This document shows, in pieces, positions 2-64,000 of a stretch of DNA of 64,000 nt (positions within the stretch are counted from its first letter, which is position 1; every line of letters begins with the position of its first letter). Made by a program: the position numbers and the translations under genes. The stretch is taken from the sequence record MT446411.1; one strand, written 5' to 3'. The notes under the pieces are model-generated. The model searched no databases. It saw only the letters and a program-made list of their open reading frames with translations, and was not told the origin of the DNA. Source of the DNA: Escherichia virus TH40.

Positions 2-2542
2 CACGAAGTTAATGTTAATGACGGAATAACCTGGTATTCCGGAGATGGCTTAGACACTTATCTTTGGTCGTTTAACTGGGCCGGTGGATTGAAAGCGGGT
101 CATTCTATTGCTGTTGGCCTTCCTCACGGTTCTAAAAATTATTCAGAAATGGGCACGGCTTCTATTGCTCTTGGTGATAATGACACCGGGTTAAAATGGC
201 ACCAAGATGGATATTTTTTTACGGTAAACAACGGTACAAAAACTTTCCTTTCCGGTCCGGCGGAAACTACTAGTCTTAGAAAAATGGTTATGGGTTATTC
301 TGTAAATGGTACTGATTTGACAACGCCACCAGCAGAAAACTACGCCCTGGCAACTGTAGTTACTTACCATGATAATAACGCTTTTGGTGATGGTCAAACC
401 CTTTTAGGATATTATCAAGGCGGTAATTACCATCACTATTTTCGTGGTAAAGGCACTACAAACGTTAACACCGCAGGCGGATTGTTAGTTACTCCAGGTG
501 ATATTAATGTTACCGGTGGTTCGGTTAATATCGACGGCCGCAACAATGCATCTACTCTGTTGTTCAAAGGATATACTACAGGAAGTAGTTCAGTTGATAA
601 TATGACTATCAGCGTTTGGGGTAATACCTTTACTAATGTCGATGGTGACCGTAAAAATGTAATGGAAATATCTGATGCCACCAGCTGGATTCAATATTAC
701 CAACGTCTGACTTCAGGTTCTATCCAAAGCCATTTAAATGGAACTTTGGGCGTAAATGAAAGTATAAATGTCGGCCAGGAAGTTAACGTCTCTGGCACTA
801 TTGCCGGTAATGCGGTCAATGCACTTCGTATTTGGAACGACGATTATGCCGCTATTTTCCGACGTTCAGAAGGTAGTCTTCATATTATTCCTACCGCCTT
901 TGGTGAAGGTAAAACTGGGGACATCGGTCCACTTCGCCCGTTTAGTTTGGCTTTAGATACTGGTAAAGTTACTATTCCAGATTTACAGTCAAGTTACAAT
1001 ACGTTCGCTGCAAACGGCTATATTAAATTTGTTGGCCATGGTGCAGGCGCAGGTGGATATGATATTCAATACGACCAAGCAGCTCCCATTTTCCAGGAAA
1101 TCGATGATGATGCCGTAAGTAAATATTACCCAATTGTTAAGCAAAAATACCTTCAAGGTAAAGCTGTGTGGTCTTTAGGTACTGAAATTAGCTCAGGTAC
1201 ATTCGTTATTCATCATCTGAAAGAAGATGGAACACAGGGTCATACATCAAGATTTAATGCTGATGGTACAGTTAATTTCCCGGATAACGTGCAGGTTGGC
1301 GGCGGTGAAGCTACTATTGGCAAAAATGGTAACATCTGGTCTGATATCTGGAAAACGTTTACTTCTGCCGGTGATGTAACCAATCTTCTTGGTGCTGTCT
1401 ATAGCCGTGTTTCAAAAGAAGGCGATACGCTGACCGGGCGCTTAACTCTTAATGCAAACTCGGATGCTATTGTTATTAACAGTGCTGCAACCGAATCCGG
1501 TTATGTGAAAGGACAAAAAGCTGGTGTTGATAACTGGTATGTAGGCAATGGCGGCGCTGATAACGCCCTATCGTTTTATAGTTTCCGAACTAATTCAGGC
1601 GTTAATATTCATAATAGTGGGGAAATTGCTTTAGCTCCTCAAGGGTCGGATACTTTTTATTTTAATAGGGACCGTCTTTATATAAAGGGTTCACAATGGG
1701 CTGCACATCAGGCTGGCGATTGGGGAAACCAATGGAAGCAAGAAGCTCCTGTGTTTGTAGATTTTGGTAATGTTGGTAATGATAGTTATTATCCGATTAT
1801 CAAAGGAAAATCTGGTATTACTAACGAAGGATACGTATCCGGTGTAGATTTTGGTATGCGCCGCATCACTAATACATGGGCCCAAGGTATTATTCGTGTA
1901 GGTAACCAGGAAAATGGCTCCGACCCGCAAGCTATCTATGAATTCCACTCTAATGGTACTTTTTATGCTCCGAGCTTACTTAAGAGCAACAGAGTATCGG
2001 CTGGTGGTGGAGACCCTGTATGGACTGGACCATGTATTGTTATCGGCGATAACGACACCGGATTGGTATGGGAAGCAGACGGTATTTTCAACGCATATGC
2101 AAACGGTCAAGGTGTGTTTAGTTTCCGCGCTGGCCTTGCTCAGACATTTGGCAACGTGTCCCTTAACGTTAACGCGGGTATGTATGTTCGCGATAACATT
2201 GACGTTAACGACGTTTATATTCGTTCTGATATTCGTTGTAAGTCGGAAATTAAGCTTATTGATAACGCCCAAGAGAAATCTAAACTCTTAGGCGGTTATA
2301 CTTATTTGCTTAAAAACTCCGTTACTGATGAAGTTAAACCGTCTGCAGGTTTAATTGCTCAGGAAGTTCAAGAAGTATTACCTGAACTTGTGACTGAAGA
2401 TAAAGAGACCGGCTTACTTCGTTTGAACTATAACGGTATTATCGGTTTAAATACTGCTACTATCAATGAGCATACTGACGAAATCAAGGAATTGAAATCT
2501 GAAATTGCTGAATTGAAAGCATTAATTAAATCATTATTATAA
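2..2542 (+). CDS. 37: long tail fibre distal subunit gp37, 5'-truncated by window start; C-terminal intramolecular-chaperone-like segment
   Basis: Frame open from nt 2; internal repeats (GDNDTGL.W..DG, YYPI[IV]K); C-terminal ...[15 protein letters not shown]...coiled coil; followed by gp38 and t as in T-even phages. Confidence 0.8.
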
Positions 2543-2546
2543 GAAA

Positions 2547-2560
2547 GGGCCTTCGGGCCC
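2547..2560 (+). other. intercistronic stem-loop GGGCC-TTCG-GGCCC between 37 and 38
   Basis: Perfect 5-bp stem with UUCG tetraloop immediately after the 37 stop, T-run and SD for 38 follow. Confidence 0.5.
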
Positions 2561-2571
2561 TGGAGGTTTTT

Positions 2572-3360
2572 ATGGCAGTAGTAGGAATTCCCGGTTGGAT
2601 TGGAACATCAGCAGTGGCTGAAACAGGTCAACGTTGGATGACAGCAGCTTCTAGAGAATTGCGTCTTGGTAACCCATCTTGGATGTCGCAATTTGCTGGT
2701 CGGTCCCGTGAGATTATTCACACCCTTGGCGCAGACCACAACTTTAACGGGCAATGGTTTAGAGACCGTTGTTTTGAAGCCGGTGCCGCACCTATTGTGT
2801 TTAATATCACCGGTGATTTAGTATCTTATACTAAAGATGTTCCATTGTTCTTTATGTACGGTGATACCCCTAATGAATACGTTACTTTGAATATTCACGG
2901 CGGGGTCCATATGTGGGGACGTGGTGGTAACGGTGGGACCCGTGTTTGGATAGCAGGTACAAATGGTGGTGATGTAATTCAAAACGACATTGGAGGCCGA
3001 CTCCGTATCTGGAACTATGGCGTTATAGCTTCAGGTGGTGGCGGCGGCGCCGGATGTGCTTCAAATAACTCTTGGCTTGAAGCAGGTACAGCCGGTGGCG
3101 GCGGTGGTAGACCATATGGATTAGGTGGTACTAATGGCGCCGTAATGCCTGGCGGCAACGCTAGTTATACCGGACCAGGTGGCGGTGGTAGCTTTGGCGG
3201 ACAGTGGGGTGGTGGTAATGGTGGCGACGCAGGCGGGGCTGGTGGCGGCGCTTACGGTCGAAACGTTACATACGGCTCGCAAGGCGGAGCCGGGCGCGCG
3301 GTATTCGGAAGTTCTCCTTCATGGGGCGCGACAGGCACTATCTACGGCTCATGGTTATAG
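2572..3360 (+). CDS. 38: gp38 receptor-binding adhesin (T2-type, glycine-rich motifs)
   Basis: 262 aa; conserved N-terminus then poly-Gly blocks ([24 protein letters not shown]...); SD ggagg; sits between 37 and t. Confidence 0.8.
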
Positions 3361-3371
3361 TACATAAGCGC

Positions 3372-3379
3372 TATAAATA
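3372..3379 (+). promoter_or_regulatory. T4-type late promoter TATAAATA for t
   Basis: Exact TATAAATA 18 nt upstream of the t ATG, followed by SD aaggag. Confidence 0.7.
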
Positions 3380-3397
3380 TCTTTAAAGGAGAAAAGT

Positions 3398-4051
3398 ATG
3401 GAACCAAAAGTAGGAATATCAATACCCGACCTACTTTTTGGACTTCTTGATAGAATTTTTAAAGATAATGCGACCGGGAAAGTTGTTTTTTCCCGGGTAC
3501 TAGTTATTGTTCTATTATTTTTAATGGCGGTAATCTGGTATAAAGGTGATGCACTTTTAGATGCGTACAGGGATGCTTCATATGCCTCATACACTGAAAT
3601 GATAAGGCAAGACCAGGATAACAGATTTAAAATTGCAGCTATCGAGCAAATCCAGATAGTCCACTCGTCAAGTGGAGCAGACTTTACAGCAATATATTCC
3701 TTTAGACCAACTAACCTTAACTACTTTGTGGATATGGTGGGATACGAGGGAATATTGCCTGATACAGTCGACGAAAAAAATTTAGGTGGGTTTCCAATAG
3801 ATAAGACTTCAGCGGAATATTTGGCGGGGGTTAATGGTAATTATTTTGAATCCAGTGTGGAATCTGTATTCTTACCAACAAAGAAAAAAAGCAGCTTCAC
3901 ATATATGTTCAGCTGCCCATTCTTTAATTTGGAAAACGTTTATGCAGGCACAGTCTCACTGTACTGGTATAAGCAAAAACCCGACCTTGGTTTTGATAGG
4001 CTTTCTTCTATGTGTGGACAAGCAGGTCGTACGCTCGGGCGTACACGTTAG
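3398..4051 (+). CDS. t: holin t
   Basis: 217 aa; LLFGLLDRIFKDNATGKV... N-terminal TMD matches T4 T holin; late promoter and SD upstream. Confidence 0.9.
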   Translation: MEPKVGISIPDLLFGLLDRIFKDNATGKVVFSRVLVIVLLFLMAVIWYKGDALLDAYRDASYASYTEMIRQDQDNRFKIAAIEQIQIVHSSSGADFTAIYSFRPTNLNYFVDMVGYEGILPDTVDEKNLGGFPIDKTSAEYLAGVNGNYFESSVESVFLPTKKKSSFTYMFSCPFFNLENVYAGTVSLYWYKQKPDLGFDRLSSMCGQAGRTLGRTR

Positions 4052-5869: not shown

Positions 5870-6189
5870 CCTTTAACACGTTGCCACAGACTTTTCTGTT
5901 GAGCTTTATTAACACCAATTGAGCGAATAACTGGTTGTGATTCCAGGTATTCTTTATAGTCAGCTTTATAGACTTCATATGCTGCTGGAACAAAGGCACC
6001 AATCGCCGCCATGAAGTTCTTGCGAGCACCAAATGGAGCTACTGCATCATCCTGGCGATGGATAAGATACTGACCAGCTTTGACCTTGACAATAGTCCCA
6101 AGGTAAGCGCCATGATACCAAACATCCCAACCCTCTTGAGTGGGTTCTACACAAGCACGCAATTCATTAACAATATTCAGCTTATTCAT
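5857..6189 (-). CDS. hypothetical protein (motA.1 position)
   Basis: 110-aa ORF immediately downstream of motA. Confidence 0.5.
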   Translation of the reverse strand: MNKLNIVNELRACVEPTQEGWDVWYHGAYLGTIVKVKAGQYLIHRQDDAVAPFGARKNFMAAIGAFVPAAYEVYKADYKEYLESQPVIRSIGVNKAQQKSLWQRVKGWFK

Positions 6190-6196
6190 AATTTCC

Positions 6197-6805
6197 TCAC
6201 TTTAAGATGTTAATAACATGTTGAATGTTTTCAGTTGACATATGATTGTCAATGTAGGTATTCAATCCACCTACTTTAACGCTAAATCCCACGTCTGTAA
6301 ACTGTTTTACTATCTTTTGTTCAGTATTATACGCATGCACGCGAATCTGACCATCACGACGAACATCAATCTGTTTTAATGTCTTGACACGCTTGAACTT
6401 CACAATCAGATTGCTGCGGTCTTCTGAAATGCTCTTAAAGTCAATACCAATAGACAACAATTGCTCTTTGATATATTCTGCAGTCGCTTCCATTTCATCA
6501 GTCACACCGCGTTTTGTTCTTGTCTTCTTCACTTCCAGAAGGTCAGGATTATTTTCATTTGCCCAAAGTTCAGCTGCATCCAGAATAAGGTCAACACCTT
6601 TTTCTGTAACCATCAAACCATCACCAGAAGCTTCAACATAGTTGTTATTCAACAATGTCTGCACGCTATCAATTGACGTGTTCTGCTGGCCTAAAACAAC
6701 CTCAGGACGCACGAAGTTGTTTTTGTATACAAACACCAGAGCATTGACATCAGTCTCATGTAGAGCGTTCTGGGAGCATTTAACGATATAATTTAGCTTG
6801 TTCAT
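6197..6805 (-). CDS. motA: middle transcription activator MotA
   Basis: 202 aa; SGDGL...ENNPDLL pattern and position between asiA and 52 as in T4. Confidence 0.75.
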   Translation of the reverse strand: MNKLNYIVKCSQNALHETDVNALVFVYKNNFVRPEVVLGQQNTSIDSVQTLLNNNYVEASGDGLMVTEKGVDLILDAAELWANENNPDLLEVKKTRTKRGVTDEMEATAEYIKEQLLSIGIDFKSISEDRSNLIVKFKRVKTLKQIDVRRDGQIRVHAYNTEQKIVKQFTDVGFSVKVGGLNTYIDNHMSTENIQHVINILK

Positions 6806-6807
6806 AA

Positions 6808-7023
6808 TTATCCCTTAATAGATTTCATGTAATTTGATGCATATGATTGTACCACAGTACGTTTCATATGGGAAGTAGAAACAATAACATCAATCGCTTG
6901 TTTACGTTCTTCTTTAGAATTCGCCAGTTTGAACATATCAAAGTAGTAATAGCAAGCTTCTTTGTTAGATTTGAATTTAGCGTTAATGTATTCTTGACCT
7001 TCATTCTGTTGTGCAGTAAACAT
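6808..7023 (-). CDS. hypothetical protein (52.1 position)
   Basis: ORF trimmed to first ATG (MFTAQQNEG...), SD ggag. Confidence 0.5.
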   Translation of the reverse strand: MFTAQQNEGQEYINAKFKSNKEACYYYFDMFKLANSKEERKQAIDVIVSTSHMKRTVVQSYASNYMKSIKG

Positions 7024-7247: not shown

Positions 7248-8623
7248 AGAGCCTCCAAATCATTAAGGTACTCAGTTTTAACGTCAGTTGTCTTCCAGTA
7301 CTCATGCTCAGCTTTCTTAGCCTTAGCTTCGTCCGCAAGCTTCTTAGCTTCATCAGAGGTCATATGGTAGATGTTCATTGCCACTAACTTCTCTGCATAA
7401 TCGCCATATATTTCACTCGCCTGGAGCTCCTCAATCAACTTCTTACGAGGTTTCCCCTGGATAACAACCTTACCATCAATCACTTCTTTAATAAAGAAGA
7501 CTTTCGCGCGGGCCAGTTTAAATGCCGCTTCAGTTTCTTTAATCTTACTGTCAATTCGCACTTGGACATAAGTCTTACGGACATCAACGAAATCGCGAAT
7601 CAGGTCAAGCGTGTTGGTGTATTCAGCCAGTTTGCCTTTATGATTAAGCACCGTTAAGTTCTGGGAGAGCTTCTCAATCAGACCAAAGTCTTTCATGATT
7701 TTCTCATGATTTTCTTCTTCAGTGCCATCCAGCTTGTATTCCTTACGGAATTTAATCTTAAACCCAAAACCATGCTCGCCACAGTTATCTTTCCAGGTGA
7801 TAAAACCTTTCTCTTCCAGCGGGTCCAGGATTTTACTTGTATACTTTTCCAGGTTCCATTGGACCGGGATTTCAGTAATTTCCATTTGAGTCCTGGAAGT
7901 CATTTTGTACGTGCCATGAAGCTCATACTTACCAGGCTCTTCCAGCTCAACAACTTTACCACGGAATTCTGGATATTTTACTTTCGGAGCAACCGGCTCA
8001 CGACCTTCCACGATAGCTTTAACAGCTTCCTTGACGTCCTGGAACGAATGAGGAAGGATATCAGTAGCAAAGCCAACAGCAATCCCAGAAGTGGCGTTAA
8101 GTAATACAGTAGGAATAACAGGAAGATAAAAAGCAGGAGGCTTATGTTCTTCATCAGGATGGACCGGAGCATATTCTGTATCCTTAAACAAGTTATAAAA
8201 GTTCTTTGAAACCCTTGCGAATACATAACGAGCTGATGATGCTTCTGGCACCATTCTGGAACCAAAGTTACCTTGCCCATCAAACATAGGATATTCATTT
8301 TTATATGTTGCGACCAAACCAGAAGTTGCTTCTTCCGCTGATGCTTCACCATGGTGATAACCATAATCAGCTACGCCCCCTGCGATGGATGCAACCTTAT
8401 GGAATTTATTCTTATCACCACGTGCCAGGTCTAATGCTCTCGCCATAACAAATCTGTGAACTGGTTTAAAACCATCAATCATGTTTGGGATGGCACGACC
8501 TTCCACAGTGTAGATAGCATATGACAATGCTTCCACATCAATAATGTCTTTTAGACTGCGTGGGTTAAGGGTCCCCATGGAATCACTGAACTGTTTGGAC
8601 ATCATACTTAAAACGTCAGACAT
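7244..8623 (-). CDS. 52: DNA topoisomerase II medium subunit gp52 (GyrA-like)
   Basis: 459 aa; ...AIPNMIDGFKPVHRFVMARA... Confidence 0.9.
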   Translation of the reverse strand: MSDVLSMMSKQFSDSMGTLNPRSLKDIIDVEALSYAIYTVEGRAIPNMIDGFKPVHRFVMARALDLARGDKNKFHKVASIAGGVADYGYHHGEASAEEATSGLVATYKNEYPMFDGQGNFGSRMVPEASSARYVFARVSKNFYNLFKDTEYAPVHPDEEHKPPAFYLPVIPTVLLNATSGIAVGFATDILPHSFQDVKEAVKAIVEGREPVAPKVKYPEFRGKVVELEEPGKYELHGTYKMTSRTQMEITEIPVQWNLEKYTSKILDPLEEKGFITWKDNCGEHGFGFKIKFRKEYKLDGTEEENHEKIMKDFGLIEKLSQNLTVLNHKGKLAEYTNTLDLIRDFVDVRKTYVQVRIDSKIKETEAAFKLARAKVFFIKEVIDGKVVIQGKPRKKLIEELQASEIYGDYAEKLVAMNIYHMTSDEAKKLADEAKAKKAEHEYWKTTDVKTEYLNDLEAL

Positions 8624-8631
8624 ATATCACC

Positions 8632-8772
8632 TTACCAGATTAACGAATGTACTGCCATTATAGCATCAGAAATAAAAAGCACAACCTGCACTAATGCAAA
8701 CACAACTCCATAATATAGCGCTACCAATAAGGCAGCAAGGGCTAACGAGTAGCCCAAGATTTTCTTAATCAT
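8632..8772 (-). CDS. small membrane protein (46 aa)
   Basis: MIKKILGYSLALAALLVALYYGVVFALVQVV...; ATGA overlap with upstream ORF. Confidence 0.45.
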   Translation of the reverse strand: MIKKILGYSLALAALLVALYYGVVFALVQVVLFISDAIMAVHSLIW

Positions 8773-8917
8773 TTTTATCCAATAATTTAAATAGTGTTAA
8801 AGTCGCTAATACACCTTGAGCTGTTGACTGCAGAAATACTGAAGTTTCTCCAGTTATTAATGTTCCAACAAATAAAAATGACCAACAGAAAAAAGCTACG
8901 CCATGAACAAATTTCAT
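8765..8917 (-). CDS. small membrane protein (50 aa)
   Basis: MKFVHGVAFFCWSFLFVGTLITGE...; SD gagg; preceded by hairpin element. Confidence 0.45.
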   Translation of the reverse strand: MKFVHGVAFFCWSFLFVGTLITGETSVFLQSTAQGVLATLTLFKLLDKND

Positions 8918-8919
8918 AT

Positions 8920-8985
8920 TTTCCTCAAGGGCGCCCAAAGACGCCAGTTAATTTCAGATTATGACGATGCCATTGCATCGCTACA
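8920..8985 (-). repeat. ~66-bp repeated intergenic hairpin/SD element, copy 1
   Basis: Near-identical to 9184-9249; contains GGCGCC-CAAA-GACGCC hairpin directly 5' of gaggaaaatATG. Confidence 0.6.
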
Positions 8986-9027
8986 GGCAGCAAGGGCTAA
9001 CGAATAGCCCAAGATTTTCTTAATCAT
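8959..9027 (-). pseudogene. truncated duplicate (22 codons) of the 8632-8772 gene N-terminus
   Basis: MIKKILGYSLALAA then diverges where the repeated hairpin element begins. Confidence 0.3.
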
Positions 9028-9182
9028 TGTTTAGCTAACCTAAGTAAACCAACAAAAGTAGAAATAACCCATGCAATAAACAATGCACCCATGAAGAAGG
9101 TACTTGGAGTCCAGACTCCTAAAAAGAAGCAGGTTGAACAAACAATAGCTATAATAAGTTCAATAAAAACTAGGATAATCAT
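9024..9182 (-). CDS. small membrane protein (52 aa)
   Basis: MIILVFIELIIAIVCSTCFFLGVW...; SD gagg; ATGA overlap downstream. Confidence 0.45.
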   Translation of the reverse strand: MIILVFIELIIAIVCSTCFFLGVWTPSTFFMGALFIAWVISTFVGLLRLAKQ

Positions 9183-9183
9183 A

Positions 9184-9249
9184 TTTTCCTCAAGGGCGTC
9201 CAAAGACGCCAGTTAATTTAAGATTATGGCGATGCCATTGCATCACATG
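9184..9249 (-). repeat. ~66-bp repeated intergenic hairpin/SD element, copy 2
   Basis: GGCGTC-CAAA-GACGCC perfect 6-bp stem; same flanks as copy 1. Confidence 0.6.
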
Positions 9250-9262
9250 TTCATTATGGAAA

Positions 9263-9436
9263 TTACTCATATATACCACACATTTTACATAAACGTTCAA
9301 AACAGATATACCCACCACTAAAGCACATAGTAACAGCAACTTTATCATTAAATGGAGCACCAAAGGCTATAAAGGCTCCTGTAATAACAAATAGTGCTAA
9401 AACAAATAGGTAACCCATTGCGAAGAAATGTCTCAT
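9263..9436 (-). CDS. small membrane protein
   Basis: ORF trimmed to [20 protein letters not shown]... just after the ndd stop. Confidence 0.4.
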
Positions 9437-9437
9437 A

Positions 9438-9887
9438 TTAATAACTCTGCAGAATGAATTTAAAGTTATCAGCAAGCATGCGATTCATTTCTGAAAGGGT
9501 CTGGCAATCAGAACTATGCGAGCGAGTGAACGCCATCGCAATTTGACCTTTACCATAACCAGTTGTCAGAGGTTTCATTTTAGAAACTGGGACAAACAGG
9601 ACTTCATAGATAACCCCATTGTTCGCCATTGTGCGAGACAGTTGAGAACGCTGTTTGCGGATGTGGCTTAATACAGTGTCAAACCCTTGTTGTGAACGTT
9701 GGTTACCAACATAAAACCGTGCAGCAACAATACGTGATTCGCCTTCACCTTTAACCACGAAATAAAAACCTGGTTGAGTGATAGCTTCTTTAGTTGGGCG
9801 ACCTGCAACATAATTACCATTATGAATATAAGCAACAGTGGTAGCGCCAGCATTCAGTACGTCACGACGGGTCATGTAAGTAGTCAT
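9438..9887 (-). CDS. ndd: nucleoid disruption protein Ndd
   Basis: 149 aa; ...[28 protein letters not shown]...[15 protein letters not shown] matches T4 Ndd. Confidence 0.85.
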
Positions 9888-9931
9888 ATTAATTTCCTCA
9901 GTAAGTTAAAGTTTTTTGCTCCAGTGGGGTC

Positions 9932-9960
9932 ATTATACTCTGACCCCAAGAGTTTGTACA
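9932..9960 (-). promoter_or_regulatory. early promoter/stem-loop cassette (TGTACA-17-TATAAT inside GGGGTCA/TGACCCC stem) for ndd
   Basis: -10 lies in the loop of a 7-bp stem; same ~45-bp element repeated at 20558-20598. Confidence 0.55.
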
Positions 9961-10308
9961 CTATTTTTGAAGTTGTTCTAAAATAAATCCGCTCGTATAA
10001 AAGGAAGCATTATACACCTTATTCAGCGGGGTCAAAGCGCGCTTATAGGTATTACGCAATTCTTTGATAACATTTTCATAACTCACGTAGTAAGCACTAT
10101 GATAATAACCTGGCTCCATACTCATACGAAATTTAATGAACCGATAAAAGCCTGTTTCCGGGTCTTGGACGAAAACGAAATCAGCACTCGTCATAACTTT
10201 TGGATGTACGTCAGGAATCATACTTTGATTGAATGCCTCCGACGCCTCCTGAAGGCTAATCTGTTTAAAGAACATAACTTTAGCATTACCAAAAAATACT
10301 TTAGACAT
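9961..10308 (-). CDS. hypothetical protein
   Basis: 115-aa ORF. Confidence 0.5.
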   Translation of the reverse strand: MSKVFFGNAKVMFFKQISLQEASEAFNQSMIPDVHPKVMTSADFVFVQDPETGFYRFIKFRMSMEPGYYHSAYYVSYENVIKELRNTYKRALTPLNKVYNASFYTSGFILEQLQK

Positions 10309-10335
10309 AATATTTTTCCCAGTAAGTAAACCTTT

Positions 10336-10482
10336 TTAAAGAACTTCTTCAATCTGAATGTACTTGCTGTAACCTTCCTCAATGAGGATATCCCGCGCAC
10401 AATTTGCGCTAATATACGCATTAAAACTAAGAGTTTTAATCACTTTACCATGAAGCTTTACTTTATAAATTCTATTGTCCAT
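10336..10482 (-). CDS. small hypothetical protein (48 aa)
   Basis: MDNRIYKVKLHGKV...; SD gaggaaaat; fills gap. Confidence 0.4.
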   Translation of the reverse strand: MDNRIYKVKLHGKVIKTLSFNAYISANCARDILIEEGYSKYIQIEEVL

Positions 10483-10496
10483 AATATTTTCCTCAA

Positions 10497-10742
10497 TTAT
10501 TCAGGGTCTACTGCGCCATCCCACAAGTCAACTTCTTCTGATGATTCCATCAGTTCATCAACTGTGAAGCACTCAGTATTATTTTCAATTGCAAAACGCT
10601 TCTGATAAAAAGGATAATCCAAACAGTTTTCAGTGCGCACGGGGCGCTCGCTGTTATCCATTAAAGGCGAAATGCGAATCAGTTGTTGACCATTACCCAG
10701 GACAAATTTTTCACCAACTGCAATGTCTTTAAAAAGTTTCAT
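10497..10742 (-). CDS. hypothetical protein
   Basis: 81-aa ORF. Confidence 0.5.
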   Translation of the reverse strand: MKLFKDIAVGEKFVLGNGQQLIRISPLMDNSERPVRTENCLDYPFYQKRFAIENNTECFTVDELMESSEEVDLWDGAVDPE

Positions 10743-10945
10743 TGCTTAGCTCCATTCCAAATTACATCAACAACAGACTTCAAACCATTATCCTGGATTT
10801 GTGTGAACACTTCAGCAGCAATCCAGAGCTGGAAACCAATCATTGCAATGGCACCAATGAAAATCAGGATAATCATCGCCACAATAAACTTGAACATAAA
10901 ATCAAAGCGACGATTGGATTTCTGAAATTGTGAATTGTAATTCAT
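10739..10945 (-). CDS. small membrane protein
   Basis: Trimmed to MNYNSQF... with SD gagga; one TM helix. Confidence 0.45.
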   Translation of the reverse strand: MNYNSQFQKSNRRFDFMFKFIVAMIILIFIGAIAMIGFQLWIAAEVFTQIQDNGLKSVVDVIWNGAKQ

Positions 10946-10955
10946 AATATTATCC

Positions 10956-11078
10956 TCAAAAGAAATAGTTAAAGTAAACGCGCACATGGTCAATCATAAA
11001 AACAATTGGGAAAATGCTCAGGACAACAAACAGTACAAACATGTTCCAAATGGCTTTAAGTAACTTTTTCATAATCAT
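10956..11078 (-). CDS. small membrane protein (40 aa)
   Basis: MIMKKLLKAIWNMFVLFVVLSIFPIVF...; downstream of promoter cassette. Confidence 0.4.
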   Translation of the reverse strand: MIMKKLLKAIWNMFVLFVVLSIFPIVFMIDHVRVYFNYFF

Positions 11079-11098
11079 CTCCAGTAGTTGATAGGTTC

Positions 11099-11126
11099 AT
11101 TATACTACAACCACTGGAGATGTACA
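11099..11126 (-). promoter_or_regulatory. early promoter cassette (TGTACA-16-TATAAT) within TCTCCAGT/ACTGGAGA inverted repeat; cagtagttgatagg leader
   Basis: Recurring family. Confidence 0.5.
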
Positions 11127-11217
11127 CTCTTTTATGCAAGTTTCATTAATAATAAACTAAAACAAACGCAAATTACTGGGATACACAACATCCAGATAAG
11201 GCACCAGGTTTTGCTGC

Positions 11218-49684: not shown

Positions 49685-49727
49685 GATATATTCCTCAGTC
49701 TCATTAAATTAAAATTTTATTATCCTG

Positions 49728-49749
49728 GGGGTCATTATACCATGACCCC
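49728..49749 (-). promoter_or_regulatory. stem-loop GGGGTCA/TGACCCC carrying extended -10 TGGTATAAT
   Basis: Same stem arms as the ndd cassette; no clear -35. Confidence 0.4.
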
Positions 49750-49757
49750 GTTGGTTT

Positions 49758-49955
49758 TTACTGCGCTTTAGCGCCTTTCCAACCTTCGTACATCAATGCG
49801 GCCGATAATAATATTGTTCCTGCACATTTTGAATAATAGAGATTCCAAAACCAGTTCAGAAAAACTTCATCATCAATACCTTGAGCTATCATATTTTCAA
49901 AGAACTGACGACGAGATTCAGCAATTCGCTGTGATAATTTAGATTCAGGATTCAT
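49758..49955 (-). CDS. hypothetical protein
   Basis: 65-aa ORF. Confidence 0.45.
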   Translation of the reverse strand: MNPESKLSQRIAESRRQFFENMIAQGIDDEVFLNWFWNLYYSKCAGTILLSAALMYEGWKGAKAQ

Positions 49956-55347: not shown

Positions 55348-55668
55348 TTATAGCGTAATCCATTCTCTGATAGTTTGGGTTACGACACGTTCTTGGGGCT
55401 TAACCAGTTCAACAGTCGGGACCATATGGTCCCAGTCGGTATGATAAGAACCGGTACGAGTTTCGTTTACAGCCACATGCACATTATGTTTTTTGCTGAA
55501 ATAAATTGCCTGGCGATATTGGTATTTGCCGGTTTGTGTCCATTCGCCTAATTCAACCGGAACCAGGTAGTCCGAAAATTCAAACTCGTATGATTCAGTA
55601 AACGCATCATGGTCTTCAATGATTTCGCTTAAAACAGCATCAACATCTAATTCATTTTCAATAGTCAT
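55348..55668 (-). CDS. hypothetical protein
   Basis: 106-aa ORF. Confidence 0.5.
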   Translation of the reverse strand: MTIENELDVDAVLSEIIEDHDAFTESYEFEFSDYLVPVELGEWTQTGKYQYRQAIYFSKKHNVHVAVNETRTGSYHTDWDHMVPTVELVKPQERVVTQTIREWITL

Positions 55669-55973
55669 TGGTCACTCCAATAGCTTGATACTTCAAAATC
55701 AGGCTCGCCGTCGTCCCAGTACCAAGGACCAACCGGATGCCAATCGCCATGCTTATCTTCTTCATATTCTTCAGATTCAAGCCCAACGTATTGCCATTGG
55801 ACTTCATAAGCAGTGCCACCAATTACGACAGTGTTTTCACCATACGGGTTAGCCACAGCAAAGTCAATGCCTTCTTCTTTCGCCAGGGCTACCATGTATT
55901 CATAGAGTTTATATTCCAGGTCGTCTTCGTTACCATCGCCCAGATAAATTGTTTGTCCACTTAATTCACTCAT
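55665..55973 (-). CDS. hypothetical acidic protein
   Basis: 102-aa ORF. Confidence 0.5.
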   Translation of the reverse strand: MSELSGQTIYLGDGNEDDLEYKLYEYMVALAKEEGIDFAVANPYGENTVVIGGTAYEVQWQYVGLESEEYEEDKHGDWHPVGPWYWDDGEPDFEVSSYWSDQ

Positions 55974-55995
55974 AATTCCACCATAAATTCGTCAA

Positions 55996-56163
55996 TCATT
56001 TAAAGTTCCAGAATGAAGCACCGACCAGAAATAAAGGCCAACAAATCATTGACGTCAGCCACCAACAAAAATCACCTGCACCGAAATCATCTAATTTAGC
56101 TAGGGTCTTAGCATAGCCAATACCAATGATAATATACAAAACACCCAACATTAATTCAATCAT
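55996..56163 (-). CDS. small membrane protein (55 aa)
   Basis: MIELMLGVLYIIIGIGYAKTL...; start overlaps nrdC stop. Confidence 0.4.
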   Translation of the reverse strand: MIELMLGVLYIIIGIGYAKTLAKLDDFGAGDFCWWLTSMICWPLFLVGASFWNFK

Positions 56164-56423
56164 TTGAAATATTCTCGCAGTTGGTCGAAGCCACCAATAT
56201 GACTTCCGTCAGGAGCAAACACTTGTGGCATAGTCAAACCAATTTGAGATTCGCGACCAAGTGCAGCCAGGAGTTGGGTAATCTTCTCATCATCAAACAC
56301 ACCTTTTTCTGGCATAACGTTGATGAATTCGTAAGGTTGTTTTTTAACATCCAAAAAACGTTTTGCATTATCACAGAAAACACAGCGATGGATAGATGAA
56401 TCGTAACCATATACTTTAAACAT
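56160..56423 (-). CDS. nrdC: thioredoxin/glutaredoxin NrdC
   Basis: 87 aa; MFKVYGYDS.IH.CV.CDNAKR...GLTMPQVFAPDGSHIGGFDQLREYFK matches T4 NrdC. Confidence 0.9.
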   Translation of the reverse strand: MFKVYGYDSSIHRCVFCDNAKRFLDVKKQPYEFINVMPEKGVFDDEKITQLLAALGRESQIGLTMPQVFAPDGSHIGGFDQLREYFK

Positions 56424-56424
56424 A

Positions 56425-56682
56425 TTATTCCTTAATTCCTAATACTTGTTTGAAGGTCTCAGTATAATCGGGGTATTGACCGGTTTGTTCTTTATGTTTG
56501 ACCATAATACCATAAACTTCTGAACGCATATTATTATATGAACGAGTTAAAGCAGATTTCAATACTGAATAACTATCCGGAAGTTTACCGTGTTCTTTAT
56601 AATAGGCCAGAGTTAATTCACGGACCACTCTTTCAGCGGTCTCAACATATTCTTTACGCTTTGCCATTTTCTTCTCGCTCAA
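56425..56682 (-). CDS. hypothetical protein
   Basis: 85-aa ORF. Confidence 0.45.
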
Positions 56683-61269: not shown

Positions 61270-62016
61270 ATGATTTTATCCGGAAGAACTGTTGATGAAC
61301 TCAATGAAAAAGTCCAGGCTGCCTTGGCTGATAATTGGTATTTGTTTGGTTCTACTATGGTGTTGCCGAATACCCCTACAGATAGCAAAGAGCGTTTTTT
61401 CCAAACTATGTCCAGCTCGGAAACTCAGATACCGGGTCCGCCTGGTCCCAAAGGAGAACCGGGTGTACCAGGACCAAAAGGAGACCCAGGTGGGGATGGA
61501 AAATCTTCTTATCAGATATGGCTTGACTTGGGAAATACAGGAACTGTTGATGATTTTTTAACTGATACAGCAGGAAAGAGGGAAAAATCCGAGGTGTTTT
61601 GGAGTGGTATAAACGTTCTATTAACTAATGGTACGACTTCAAACATAATTAGTGTTTTAAAGGGGATTCCACCGACTGCAGGGACTCTATCTCCGTTTTT
61701 TAGAACCACTGATGATAAGTTGTGGCCATATAACCAAGACAGAAGCCTAATGTTTAAACTCAACCTTATTGGTAATTTTGCAGGAGCCTCGCAAGCTCGA
61801 AGTATAACATTAAATTTCGTTGGAACCAACGGAAACACTTATATACAGAATCGTCCGGAAAATGCTACAGATATTTTGTCTTTTACAACGTTCTTTAGCA
61901 TTGATAAAGATGGGGCAATGGCAACCAATGGTACAGCTATAACTGTTATGCCAAATGGCGGCAACTTTACAATAACCTCTGCATTGTTAGTAGCCGAACA
62001 AACAGCGACTTCATAA
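61270..62016 (+). CDS. collagen-like repeat protein
   Basis: 248 aa; SD aaaggag; G-x-y run GPPGPKGEPGVPGPKGDPGGDG then Asn/Thr-rich domain. Confidence 0.55.
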   Translation: MILSGRTVDELNEKVQAALADNWYLFGSTMVLPNTPTDSKERFFQTMSSSETQIPGPPGPKGEPGVPGPKGDPGGDGKSSYQIWLDLGNTGTVDDFLTDTAGKREKSEVFWSGINVLLTNGTTSNIISVLKGIPPTAGTLSPFFRTTDDKLWPYNQDRSLMFKLNLIGNFAGASQARSITLNFVGTNGNTYIQNRPENATDILSFTTFFSIDKDGAMATNGTAITVMPNGGNFTITSALLVAEQTATS

Positions 62017-62024
62017 ACAAAAAA

Positions 62025-62038
62025 GGGCCGTATGGCCC
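62025..62038 (-). terminator. rho-independent terminator GGGCC-GTAT-GGCCC
   Basis: A-run upstream and TTTTTTG on - strand; sits between convergent genes. Confidence 0.65.
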
Positions 62039-62281
62039 TTAGATTGCACTCCAAAAATTATGGAATCTTATAGTATTGATAGCCCAGTTAACAAACCTGC
62101 GAGTTTGCTTGGGAGTTGGTTTGCATGTGTACTTGATATTGTCCCGACGACCAGTTTCACGACAGACTGCTTCGAGATACCAGCGGCGACCTTTATGAGG
62201 TCTTCCATACGATAAGAAGACCTTGATTTCCTGGTTATCGATAATAGGAATTGTGGTTGTCAAGATATACCTCCTCAACAA
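62039..62281 (-). CDS. hypothetical basic protein
   Basis: 80-aa ORF. Confidence 0.45.
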   Translation of the reverse strand: MLRRYILTTTIPIIDNQEIKVFLSYGRPHKGRRWYLEAVCRETGRRDNIKYTCKPTPKQTRRFVNWAINTIRFHNFWSAI

Positions 62282-63245
62282 ACTTGTCCCAGAACTTCAT
62301 GTCCACCTTCGCAGGCATACCGTTCTTATGAGCCCAGATGGCATTAGTTTCGACTTCATCAACGATAGCTTCAAGTTCAGCCTGTACATCTTTAAAAGCA
62401 TGTAGCCCTTGTTTGATTTCAAGGATAAACGGTGCTGTTCGTAAAGGATATTGAAGGTCACCGGTCATATAAATTTCCTTCAGCTGATATCCAGCACGAT
62501 AAGCATGGCTCAGAGCTTTCCAATCAATGCCTTCATTAGCTTCGGCCTTACGAGCACGTTCACCATATTCAGCATCAAGTTTATTCAGAGATTGCTTGAG
62601 CTCGATTAAGGACAAAGTGGTTTGGTATTTACGACCGAGGACAGTATAGAACGTTTGAGGACCTGTTTTCTCATGGTTATGGAATACCCATTCACAGAAC
62701 TCGTTTTCGGGGAGTCGGTGCTTAATATCTTCTACCTTAGTTCGACGTTGCTTAACAGAACCATCTTCTTGATAATCGACCCACTGTTCAGGAATCTGGT
62801 TAACTATAGCTAGTACACCACGCAGTGCAGCCAGACGAGAACCTTTAACACCATATTTGGAAGCTTGCTTACGGACGTACCCTAAATAGGCTTTCATGTT
62901 AGTTGTATAGAACCGCGAACGGTTGTCTTGAATAAACTTCCATACATCTGGTAAATCGGATTTGACTACCAGGTCAGCCGGTGTGTGAATCATATCCAGG
63001 GCAACGGTTTCACCTTCGGCTGCCAGTTTAAAGAAATATTTCAGGCTATAAAGTTCATGGTCAACATCGTCTTTTGTGTTCTTTGATGCAGTGTTATTCG
63101 TGCTCAGGTTTGTATGGTTCATCGCGGTTCCGAGCAGGATATCTCGCGGATGTGGAACAAAGATTTCTTTAAAATCGACATCAGATTCTGGAGTACTTGT
63201 TCCATAAAGGTGGGAGCCAAAATATCCCTTCATAACTGTTTTCAT
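62235..63245 (-). CDS. predicted nucleotidyltransferase-fold protein
   Basis: 336 aa; N-terminal FGSHLYGTSTPESDVDF fits the pol-beta-type hG[GS]x9-13Dh[DE]h signature. Confidence 0.5.
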   Translation of the reverse strand: MKTVMKGYFGSHLYGTSTPESDVDFKEIFVPHPRDILLGTAMNHTNLSTNNTASKNTKDDVDHELYSLKYFFKLAAEGETVALDMIHTPADLVVKSDLPDVWKFIQDNRSRFYTTNMKAYLGYVRKQASKYGVKGSRLAALRGVLAIVNQIPEQWVDYQEDGSVKQRRTKVEDIKHRLPENEFCEWVFHNHEKTGPQTFYTVLGRKYQTTLSLIELKQSLNKLDAEYGERARKAEANEGIDWKALSHAYRAGYQLKEIYMTGDLQYPLRTAPFILEIKQGLHAFKDVQAELEAIVDEVETNAIWAHKNGMPAKVDMKFWDKFVEEVYLDNHNSYYR

Positions 63246-64000
63246 TATTCACCTCTTTCATAGTCTTCAATAAATTGCATAATTAAACGCTGATAATTGG
63301 ATTTAGGGTATCCTAATTTACTAATATGAGTACCAAAAGCTCCACGCTTTGGCCTATTTAATTTAAGCCATAACGAGTAAAGCAAATCATAATCTTGCCA
63401 CTGTTTTCCTATTCTTTGTTTTGCTTTAGAAGCATCAGATTGTCTCTTTTTAGTCTCTGGATTATTTAAAGATTTCTTAACAGCATTCGAATGACGTTCT
63501 CTAACATCTGGCCGTTTAAATGCTTCTTTAATCGCTTTAGAAATTTTCTCTTTAACTTCAGGACGGTTTTGGGCTTCTATTTGAACAGCCGACATTTTAT
63601 CCTTTATTTTGGGCAGACTCATAGTTATAGAGCGTTTGTTTCTATATTCTTTGGTCTTCCATATTTCTTTCATTGTATTCGAATGAATTTCTGAAAATTT
63701 TTCTCTAACTAATTGGTATCCCCTAGAAGTTAATTTAAGGTTTCTTCCCAGAGAATCTTCGCCGAAGTTATAAAATGACCACCAGGCATAAATTAATCCA
63801 GAAGAATCGGAATGAATTCTAGCTAGAAGCCAGTGTGCTATAAAATGTTCTCTAGCTGTCAACAGAACCAAATTATTAGGTTCATCACTCCCGCCAATAC
63901 ATGACGGGATTATATGATGGGACTCTGTATAAAAATTTAATTTGGATTTGTCTAATCCTCTAAGTTTACCTCTTTGGATTAGACTATCATAAAGCTTGAT
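63245..64000 (-). CDS. HNH homing endonuclease (Mob-like), N-terminus beyond window end
   Basis: Frame open to nt 64000; ...ESHHIIPSCIGGSDEPNNLVLLTAREHFIAH... HNH motif; Lys-rich C-terminal region. Confidence 0.7.
   Translation of the reverse strand: MKLYDSLIQRGKLRGLDKSKLNFYTESHHIIPSCIGGSDEPNNLVLLTAREHFIAHWLLARIHSDSSGLIYAWWSFYNFGEDSLGRNLKLTSRGYQLVREKFSEIHSNTMKEIWKTKEYRNKRSITMSLPKIKDKMSAVQIEAQNRPEVKEKISKAIKEAFKRPDVRERHSNAVKKSLNNPETKKRQSDASKAKQRIGKQWQDYDLLYSLWLKLNRPKRGAFGTHISKLGYPKSNYQRLIMQFIEDYERGE

Follow-up and report, generated by a model that had tools for sequence, protein, structure and literature searches.

The window is the whole stretch of 64,000 nt that was analysed. On its minus strand lies the coding sequence of a T4 nrdC.11 ortholog (62235..63245), which encodes 336 aa plus a stop; judged by its sequence, the product is a Pol-beta-type nucleotidyltransferase (NTase) of the RlaP family (PF10127). 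As read from the sequence, the gene begins with ATG and has a GAGG Shine-Dalgarno sequence in front. Directly upstream and on the same strand is an ortholog of mobD (63245..>64000), a gene for an HNH homing endonuclease that is cut by the window end. Its translation carries the HNH motif SHHIIP...NLVLLTAREH, is 79% identical to T4 MobD and matches PHROG 655 (homing endonuclease). The TAA stop codon of mobD and the ATG of nrdC.11 share one base (TAATG). nrdC.11 would be co-transcribed with the upstream mobD, and translational coupling of the two is probable.

At the other side of nrdC.11, an intrinsic-terminator-like hairpin on the minus strand (62023..62040; GGGCC-loop-GGCCC, then a T run) forms the end of the minus-strand unit. 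It faces the end of a plus-strand gene with Gly-X-Y repeats (61270..62016), found in the ORF list and by profile search. An earlier sequence-only reading of this locus had described the endonuclease gene and the plus-strand repeat gene as neighbours, and both are in place. The place of nrdC.10 is occupied in the window by a small ORF with DUF7279 and by a knob-domain gene on the opposite strand. The tRNA and Rfam scans gave no tRNA and no Rfam match within the window, and no RNA ligase gene is located beside the nrdC.11 ortholog within it.

T4 NrdC.11 (NP_049709; T4 55435..56445) is 82% identical to the window protein over all 336 residues, with no gaps, and belongs to the same Pfam and PHROG family. 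In T4, mobD is immediately followed downstream by nrdC.11 within the early-gene block that extends from nrdC to mobD.1, and the order in the window is identical. As the T4 gene sits at the same site and has this level of identity, the premise of the sequence-only reading that T4 has no such enzyme at this position is wrong. A review table (PMC2988022) gives the insertion point of mobD as between nrdC.11 and mobD.1. There are two differences between the loci. nrdC.11 is followed downstream by nrdC.10 (P-loop NTPase-like) in T4 and IME08, whereas the window is without nrdC.10, like vB_EcoM_RZ. The overlap between the mobD stop and the nrdC.11 start is 17 nt in T4 versus 1 nt in the window.

The window represents a Gaprivervirus-like T-even phage near VR7, SP18 and vB_EcoM_RZ. 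The NrdC.11 of VR7 is 97% identical to the window protein, and VR7 encodes pseT and rnlA. These two genes are not adjacent to nrdC.11 in T4-like phages: they are ~79–81 kb distant in T4 and lie elsewhere in the genome in VR7, too. T4 NrdC.11 has the RefSeq product name 'nucleotidyltransferase', and the orthologs in IME08, VR7, SP18 and vB_EcoM_RZ bear the label nrdC.11 (IME08, SP18 and VR7) or nucleotidyltransferase. A common annotation error is the label 'thioredoxin' for NrdC.11 orthologs.

Relatives were found by tblastn in 1542 phage records, with coverage of the protein of 80% or more in 1443 of them. In the T4-like annotations that were read, the gene is located in the nrdC–mobD.1 block (T4, IME08 and vB_EcoM_RZ), and only mobD and the plus-strand knob gene differ in presence between phages. 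The idea of a cargo-like cluster was therefore abandoned for the NTase itself. By sequence and position, the window gene is the ordinary counterpart of T4 nrdC.11, that is a conserved, annotated T-even gene, neither new nor cargo. T4 stays viable on laboratory hosts after loss of the nrdC.11–mobD.3 block (PMC9825161). The dispensability of the block fits an accessory role without identifying it.

The family assignment is based on profile matches. The Pfam RlaP profile matched with 41.9 bits (gathering cutoff 23, E=1.3e-10), limited to residues 8–135, which correspond to profile positions 25–143 of 249. PF10127 has the description 'RNA repair pathway DNA polymerase beta family'. For conservation, 129 homologues with 34–83% identity were aligned, and 127 of them match Pfam RlaP as well. 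PHROG 388 ('nucleotidyltransferase') matched residues 1–335 (E=5e-132). When 1.84 billion representative proteins were searched, 3045 clusters were obtained at E ≤1e-3. The PDB added little: a PDB sequence search and a profile search (E ≤1) returned nothing relevant for the window protein, and Foldseek gave weak NTase matches in the PDB, all with TM <0.36. On its sequence, the window protein belongs to RlaP, a family tied to RNA repair rather than nucleotide signalling.

The NTase signature FGSHLYGTSTPESDVDF comprises residues F9–F25 (63171..63221, minus strand) and holds G10, S11 and the metal-binding D22 and D24. The Pol-beta pattern, hG[GS] followed ~10 residues on by [DE]h[DE]h, is present as F9-G10-S11...D22-V-D24-F. 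This motif had been taken as a textbook signature, and it is there as quoted, but by itself it is not statistically meaningful. When the 87 window ORFs with a length of 100 aa or more were scanned, GS-x9-11-D-x-D was seen twice versus 0.62 times expected by residue shuffle, and the looser G[SG]-x8-13-D-x-[DE] was seen four times versus 5.0 expected. It is the profile and comparative evidence that carries the NTase assignment.

The residues of the signature are conserved, as the sequence-only reading would have it. Invariant across the 129 homologues were G10, S21, D22, D24, Y131, H247, R250 and P267; at least 90% conservation was found for S11, D60, D62, D84 and several basic and aromatic residues. 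A profile–profile comparison (hhalign) with canonical RlaP, using a set of proteins from bacterial loci, aligned 84 columns at 81% probability. The aligned part is the NTase domain alone (window residues 1–90). The pairs were G10/S11 with G31/S32, D22/D24 with D43/D45, D62 with D82 (invariant) and D84 with E104 (invariant). D84 is a further conserved acidic residue (ALDMIH; 62994..62996, minus strand). D62 lies in the motif DVDHE (63060..63062, minus strand) and is the putative third catalytic carboxylate, a residue whose presence the earlier reading had left to be checked. Because it is at least 90% conserved, is located on the predicted strand 61–67 and aligns with an invariant Asp, D62 is most likely the third catalytic Asp. 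The catalytic triad is probably formed by D22, D24 and D62.

An AlphaFold model reached a pLDDT of 94.7 with the 129-sequence alignment and of 40.5 with the single sequence. It has the NTase fold, which together with Pfam RlaP and PHROG 388 bears out the assignment to the Pol-beta superfamily. Its N-terminal part is an alpha/beta NTase domain, which is followed by a beta-rich insert and then by a helical domain at the C-terminus. The NTase domain (~residues 1–135; 62841..63245, minus strand) has strands at 2–9, 23–30, 44–48 and 61–67 and is the sole part matching the Pfam RlaP profile and canonical RlaP. The beta-rich insert (~residues 150–210; 62616..62798, minus strand) has strands at 154–158, 164–168, 184–191, 195–202 and 205–208; it is outside the Pfam and hhalign coverage, neither of which extends past residue 135. 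The C-terminal domain (~residues 211–336; 62238..62615, minus strand) has helices at 213–235, 242–261, 271–278, 284–307 and 316–335. It contains the clade-specific motif DWKAxSHAxR (with the invariant H247 and R250) and the invariant P267.

Canonical RlaP and the NrdC.11 type share PF10127, and the conserved GS, the DxD, the third Asp and the further acidic residue are common to both NTase domains. Both types neighbour RNA ligases, RtcB and Pnkp. The window protein is ~70 residues longer than canonical RlaP, and its C-terminal ~200 residues (two thirds), including the beta-rich insert, have no profile-level alignment to it. Hence, the substrate specificity could differ. In the crystal structure of PfRlaP, the C-terminal domain is helical and its last helix folds back against the NTase domain. 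The window model has a helical C-terminal domain with a long terminal helix (316–335). In the similarity network of PMC12776372, T4 NrdC.11 is in cluster 5 and canonical RlaP in cluster 1a. The activity of canonical RlaP was assayed in Pseudomonas enzymes, whereas that of the NrdC.11 clade is predicted.

The two types also differ in their distribution. Canonical RlaP was found in 78 phage records, comprising phages of Pseudomonas (55), Brevundimonas, Burkholderia, Caulobacter, Fusobacterium, Serratia and Klebsiella. The Pseudomonas phages listed with canonical RlaP have genomes of ~270–305 kb. No canonical RlaP was found in T4-like phages, where the NrdC.11 type is the only RlaP type.

The gene neighbourhoods link the NrdC.11 clade to RNA-repair genes. 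With the motif DWKAxSHAxR, 80 viral and 80 cellular loci were fetched. Neighbours were counted within 6 kb for the cellular loci and in 25 divergent loci for the viral ones. The most frequent neighbour in the 80 cellular loci was a canonical RlaP paralogue (23), followed by RtcB (9), bacterial Pnkp, a kinase-phosphatase-ligase (8), Hen1 (7), a PseT-like kinase-phosphatase (4), Ro60 (2) and an RnlA-type ligase (1). Leaving the RlaP paralogue out of the count, at least one RNA-repair gene was located within 6 kb in 18 of the 80. The paralogue (~266 aa) has a full-length PF10127 match (E=4e-73) and is usually found immediately downstream on the same strand. Such tandem pairs in bacteria speak against a functional equivalence of the two types.

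In the viral loci, an RNA ligase was nearby in 4 of the 25. One viral contig (L078) has the NTase, an RNA ligase (PF09414) and a PNKP kinase-phosphatase in series, and RnlA-type, Rnl-type or RtcB ligases are nearby in three viral loci (L065, L072 and L074). The order NTase, PseT-like gene, RnlA-like gene was seen at a further locus (L090). T4 NrdC.10 was considered as a second NTase by comparison with the bacterial tandem pairs and was rejected, as it gave just weak, below-cutoff matches to P-loop/STAND NTPases.

RlaP was named in 2016 by Burroughs & Aravind after its association with RNA ligases, as related in PMC12776372. A survey of jumbo phages (PMC7824862) predicts that RlaP replaces nucleotides lost to RloC-type cleavage, ahead of ligation. 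Carruthers, Fatma & Huang (bioRxiv, December 2025; PMC12776372) studied two enzymes, PfRlaP of P. fluorescens and PaRlaP of P. aeruginosa. Both add one to two NMP to the 3'-OH ends of RNA, prefer Mn2+ and do not act on DNA or protein. A nicked-tRNA mimic was the preferred substrate, and the aminoacylation of a tRNA short of one anticodon-loop nucleotide was partly restored by Pseudomonas RlaP (PMC12776372). The same study places T4 NrdC.11 in PF10127 as a protein 'of unknown function'. As the 3'-OH needed by Rnl1 is made by PseT and preserved by the RlaP reaction, the T4-type pathway is chemically compatible with such an enzyme.

The reading we prefer, with a probability of roughly 60%, is that NrdC.11 adds one or a few nucleotides to the 3'-OH of a broken tRNA after healing by PseT and before sealing by Rnl1, and so counters anticodon nucleases that excise nucleotides. 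The carboxylates of D22, D24 and D62 would hold two divalent metals, and the enzyme would extend the 3'-OH of broken RNA by one or a few nucleotides with no template. The likeliest substrate would be the 5' half left when a host anticodon nuclease such as RloC, which takes out a nucleotide as well as cutting, has cleaved the anticodon loop of a tRNA. Before this step, the 3'-OH would be produced by the phage polynucleotide kinase-phosphatase PseT; after it, RNA ligase 1 would join the restored ends. We infer that the substrate is RNA, how many nucleotides are added and that the enzyme acts against nucleases from the biochemistry of the two distant Pseudomonas enzymes and from the earlier comparative genomics.

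An RNA 3'-end NTase could also have another target. NrdC.11 might act on tRNA acceptor (CCA) ends or tail phage or host transcripts, with the paired canonical RlaP filling the gaps in bacteria. The C-terminal half, which presumably binds the substrate and is unlike that of canonical RlaP, is consistent with this, and the tandem pairs in the 23 cellular loci imply a division of labour. Moreover, in vitro labelling by PfRlaP extends to full-length tRNA and to RNAs of rRNA size (PMC12776372). However, the neighbourhoods with Pnkp/Hen1, RtcB and RNA ligases are just as compatible with end-healing at breaks, and no likeness to CCA-adding enzymes was found in Pfam or NCBIfam. T4-like phages carry the NrdC.11 type alone, so any RlaP-like gap filling in these phages must be by NrdC.11. 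We regard another RNA target as unlikely.

The sequence-only reading had suggested a nucleotide-signalling, modification or anti-defence function as possible, and none of these found support. A synthase of short (deoxy)nucleotide oligomers or cyclic signals that disturb host defence, or an anti-defence mimic, would resemble Hailong HalB or the CD-NTases. HalB (PDB 9dbh and 9dbj; 217 aa) makes oligodeoxyadenylate as a defence signal, and its catalytic pair D21/D23, as given in the PDB titles, invites comparison with D22/D24 here; the location of the gene within a non-essential early-gene region would also suit such a role. The resemblance to HalB is at the level of the fold only (13% identity, TM 0.24–0.34), with no detectable sequence relationship, and HalB was not found by the PDB profile search at E ≤1. 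While HalB works in a defence system, no defence-system context was found around the window gene, and PADLOC gave no hit for the window protein at E ≤0.1. The sequence points to RlaP, and the relatives are located in RNA-repair operons, not in defence islands. A signal synthase or mimic is thus very unlikely.

Even less probable is the nucleotidylylation of a protein or small molecule, for example AMPylation of a host toxin or another factor, in the manner of the MntA/AbiEii antitoxins or aminoglycoside NTases. Kanamycin nucleotidyltransferase ANT(4') and the minimal NTases of MNT-HEPN pairs have small-molecule or protein substrates, and the sub-threshold matches in NCBIfam and Pfam were indeed to MntA and NTP_transf_2. 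These scores are far under the cutoffs (13.4 bits versus 60 for MntA and 14.2 versus 21 for NTP_transf_2). No HEPN or toxin partner gene is present near the nrdC.11 ortholog within the window, and E. coli proteins were not labelled by Pseudomonas RlaP (PMC12776372). A catalytically dead NTase-fold protein with a structural or regulatory role can be practically dismissed: dispensability in T4 is compatible with it and nothing specific favours it, whereas G10, S11, D22, D24 and D62 are invariant or nearly so in homologues down to 34% identity.

The proposed repair of broken tRNA by NrdC.11 can be extended by a more speculative idea, which we hold only tentatively and consider rather doubtful as a whole. 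The NrdC.11 type may be a functionally distinct partner of canonical RlaP, with a C-terminal domain and beta insert of its own, that is found in tandem with it in bacterial Hen1–Pnkp/RtcB operons. In T-even phages, it may be the missing nucleotide-restoring step that lets PseT and Rnl1 reverse RloC-type damage, which is held to be irreparable by T4.

The family has already been named and distant bacterial members were recently characterised; as a finding, the gene matters little. T4 NrdC.11 is an easily testable candidate for a third member of the classic pathway by which phages repair tRNA. If NrdC.11 does restore excised anticodon nucleotides, a gap in the arms race between anticodon nucleases and repair that has been open for decades would close.

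The gene upstream of nrdC.11 (336 aa, minus strand, 62235-63245), which encodes the RlaP-family nucleotidyltransferase, was mobD, an HNH homing endonuclease gene on the minus strand (63245-64000) that runs off the end of the window. Its stop codon overlaps the nrdC.11 start as TAATG. In a comparison that included locus L003, mobD was found in the window, T4, RB9 and VR26. It was missing in the T4-like phages vB_EcoM_RZ and IME08, both otherwise collinear, and a gene annotated as 'membrane protein' lay immediately 5' of nrdC.11 in these two. Such a presence/absence polymorphism is typical of a free-standing homing endonuclease.

The downstream side differed as well. In T4 and IME08, this place is occupied by nrdC.10, the downstream neighbour of T4 nrdC.11, whereas the window lacks nrdC.10 and carries a knob-domain gene (61270-62016) and a small ORF (62039-62281) instead. 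nrdC.10 was present in 36 of the 80 related viral loci. For T4 NrdC.10 (444-1421 in locus L004), the Pfam matches of P-loop/STAND-NTPase-like type (AAA_14, nSTAND3) were weak and fell below the cutoff. The knob-domain gene was the sole plus-strand gene across the examined ~57.9-64 kb of the window. Its 248-aa product has a short collagen-like Gly-X-Y run and, at the C-terminus, a tail-needle-knob domain of the Sf6 type (PF16532, E=2.6e-32), which shares about 40% identity with the Sf6 knob. Only about 41 phage records contained a full-length copy of the gene. The small minus-strand ORF belongs to the DUF7279 / PHROG 8921 family and overlaps the 3' end of nrdC.11. Its probable start is an internal TTG at 62263, which is preceded at a distance of 6 nt by a strong Shine-Dalgarno sequence (GAGGAGG) and gives a 74-aa product. 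The RefSeq record of vB_EcoM_RZ (NC_070780) has no annotated CDS at the equivalent position.

In a shortened Escherichia phage T4 genome (OL964745.1, 159,752 bp), only a remnant of nrdC.11 was left, comprising the last ~39 codons (49712-49828). This is consistent with the loss of the nrdC.11-mobD.3 block reported for a genome-reduced T4 (PMC9825161).

Many GenBank and UniRef entries name NrdC.11 orthologues 'thioredoxin', a label apparently taken from the gene name nrdC.11. Other names were 'HNH homing endonuclease' (one entry) and 'ArsR family regulator' (a JGI entry). All three labels are misannotations.

Beyond the T4-like phages, some NrdC.11-type genes occurred next to RNA-repair genes. 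In viral contig L078, the nucleotidyltransferase gene was followed by an RNA ligase (PF09414) and a PNKP kinase/HAD phosphatase (8001-11179), and in L090, a contig that binning assigned to a Bathyarchaeota MAG, by a PseT-like and then an RnlA-like gene (80-3626). Both cassettes are compact and look like self-contained RNA-repair modules of three enzymes. Among the cellular loci, Hen1 and Pnkp genes lay upstream of the NrdC.11-type gene in L148, L155 and L163; in L148 (in the order Hen1, Pnkp, NrdC.11-type, RlaP) and L155, a canonical RlaP gene followed downstream. Such a gene (266 aa) was found directly 3' of the NrdC.11-type gene in 23 of the 80 cellular loci, from genomes of Alphaproteobacteria, Desulfobacterota and Nitrospirota. 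In L137, L144, L148, L155, L165 and others, the NrdC.11-type gene spanned ~6001-6960 of the locus and the canonical RlaP gene began at ~6975. The conservation of this paralogue pair suggests that the two proteins have non-redundant roles or form a complex.
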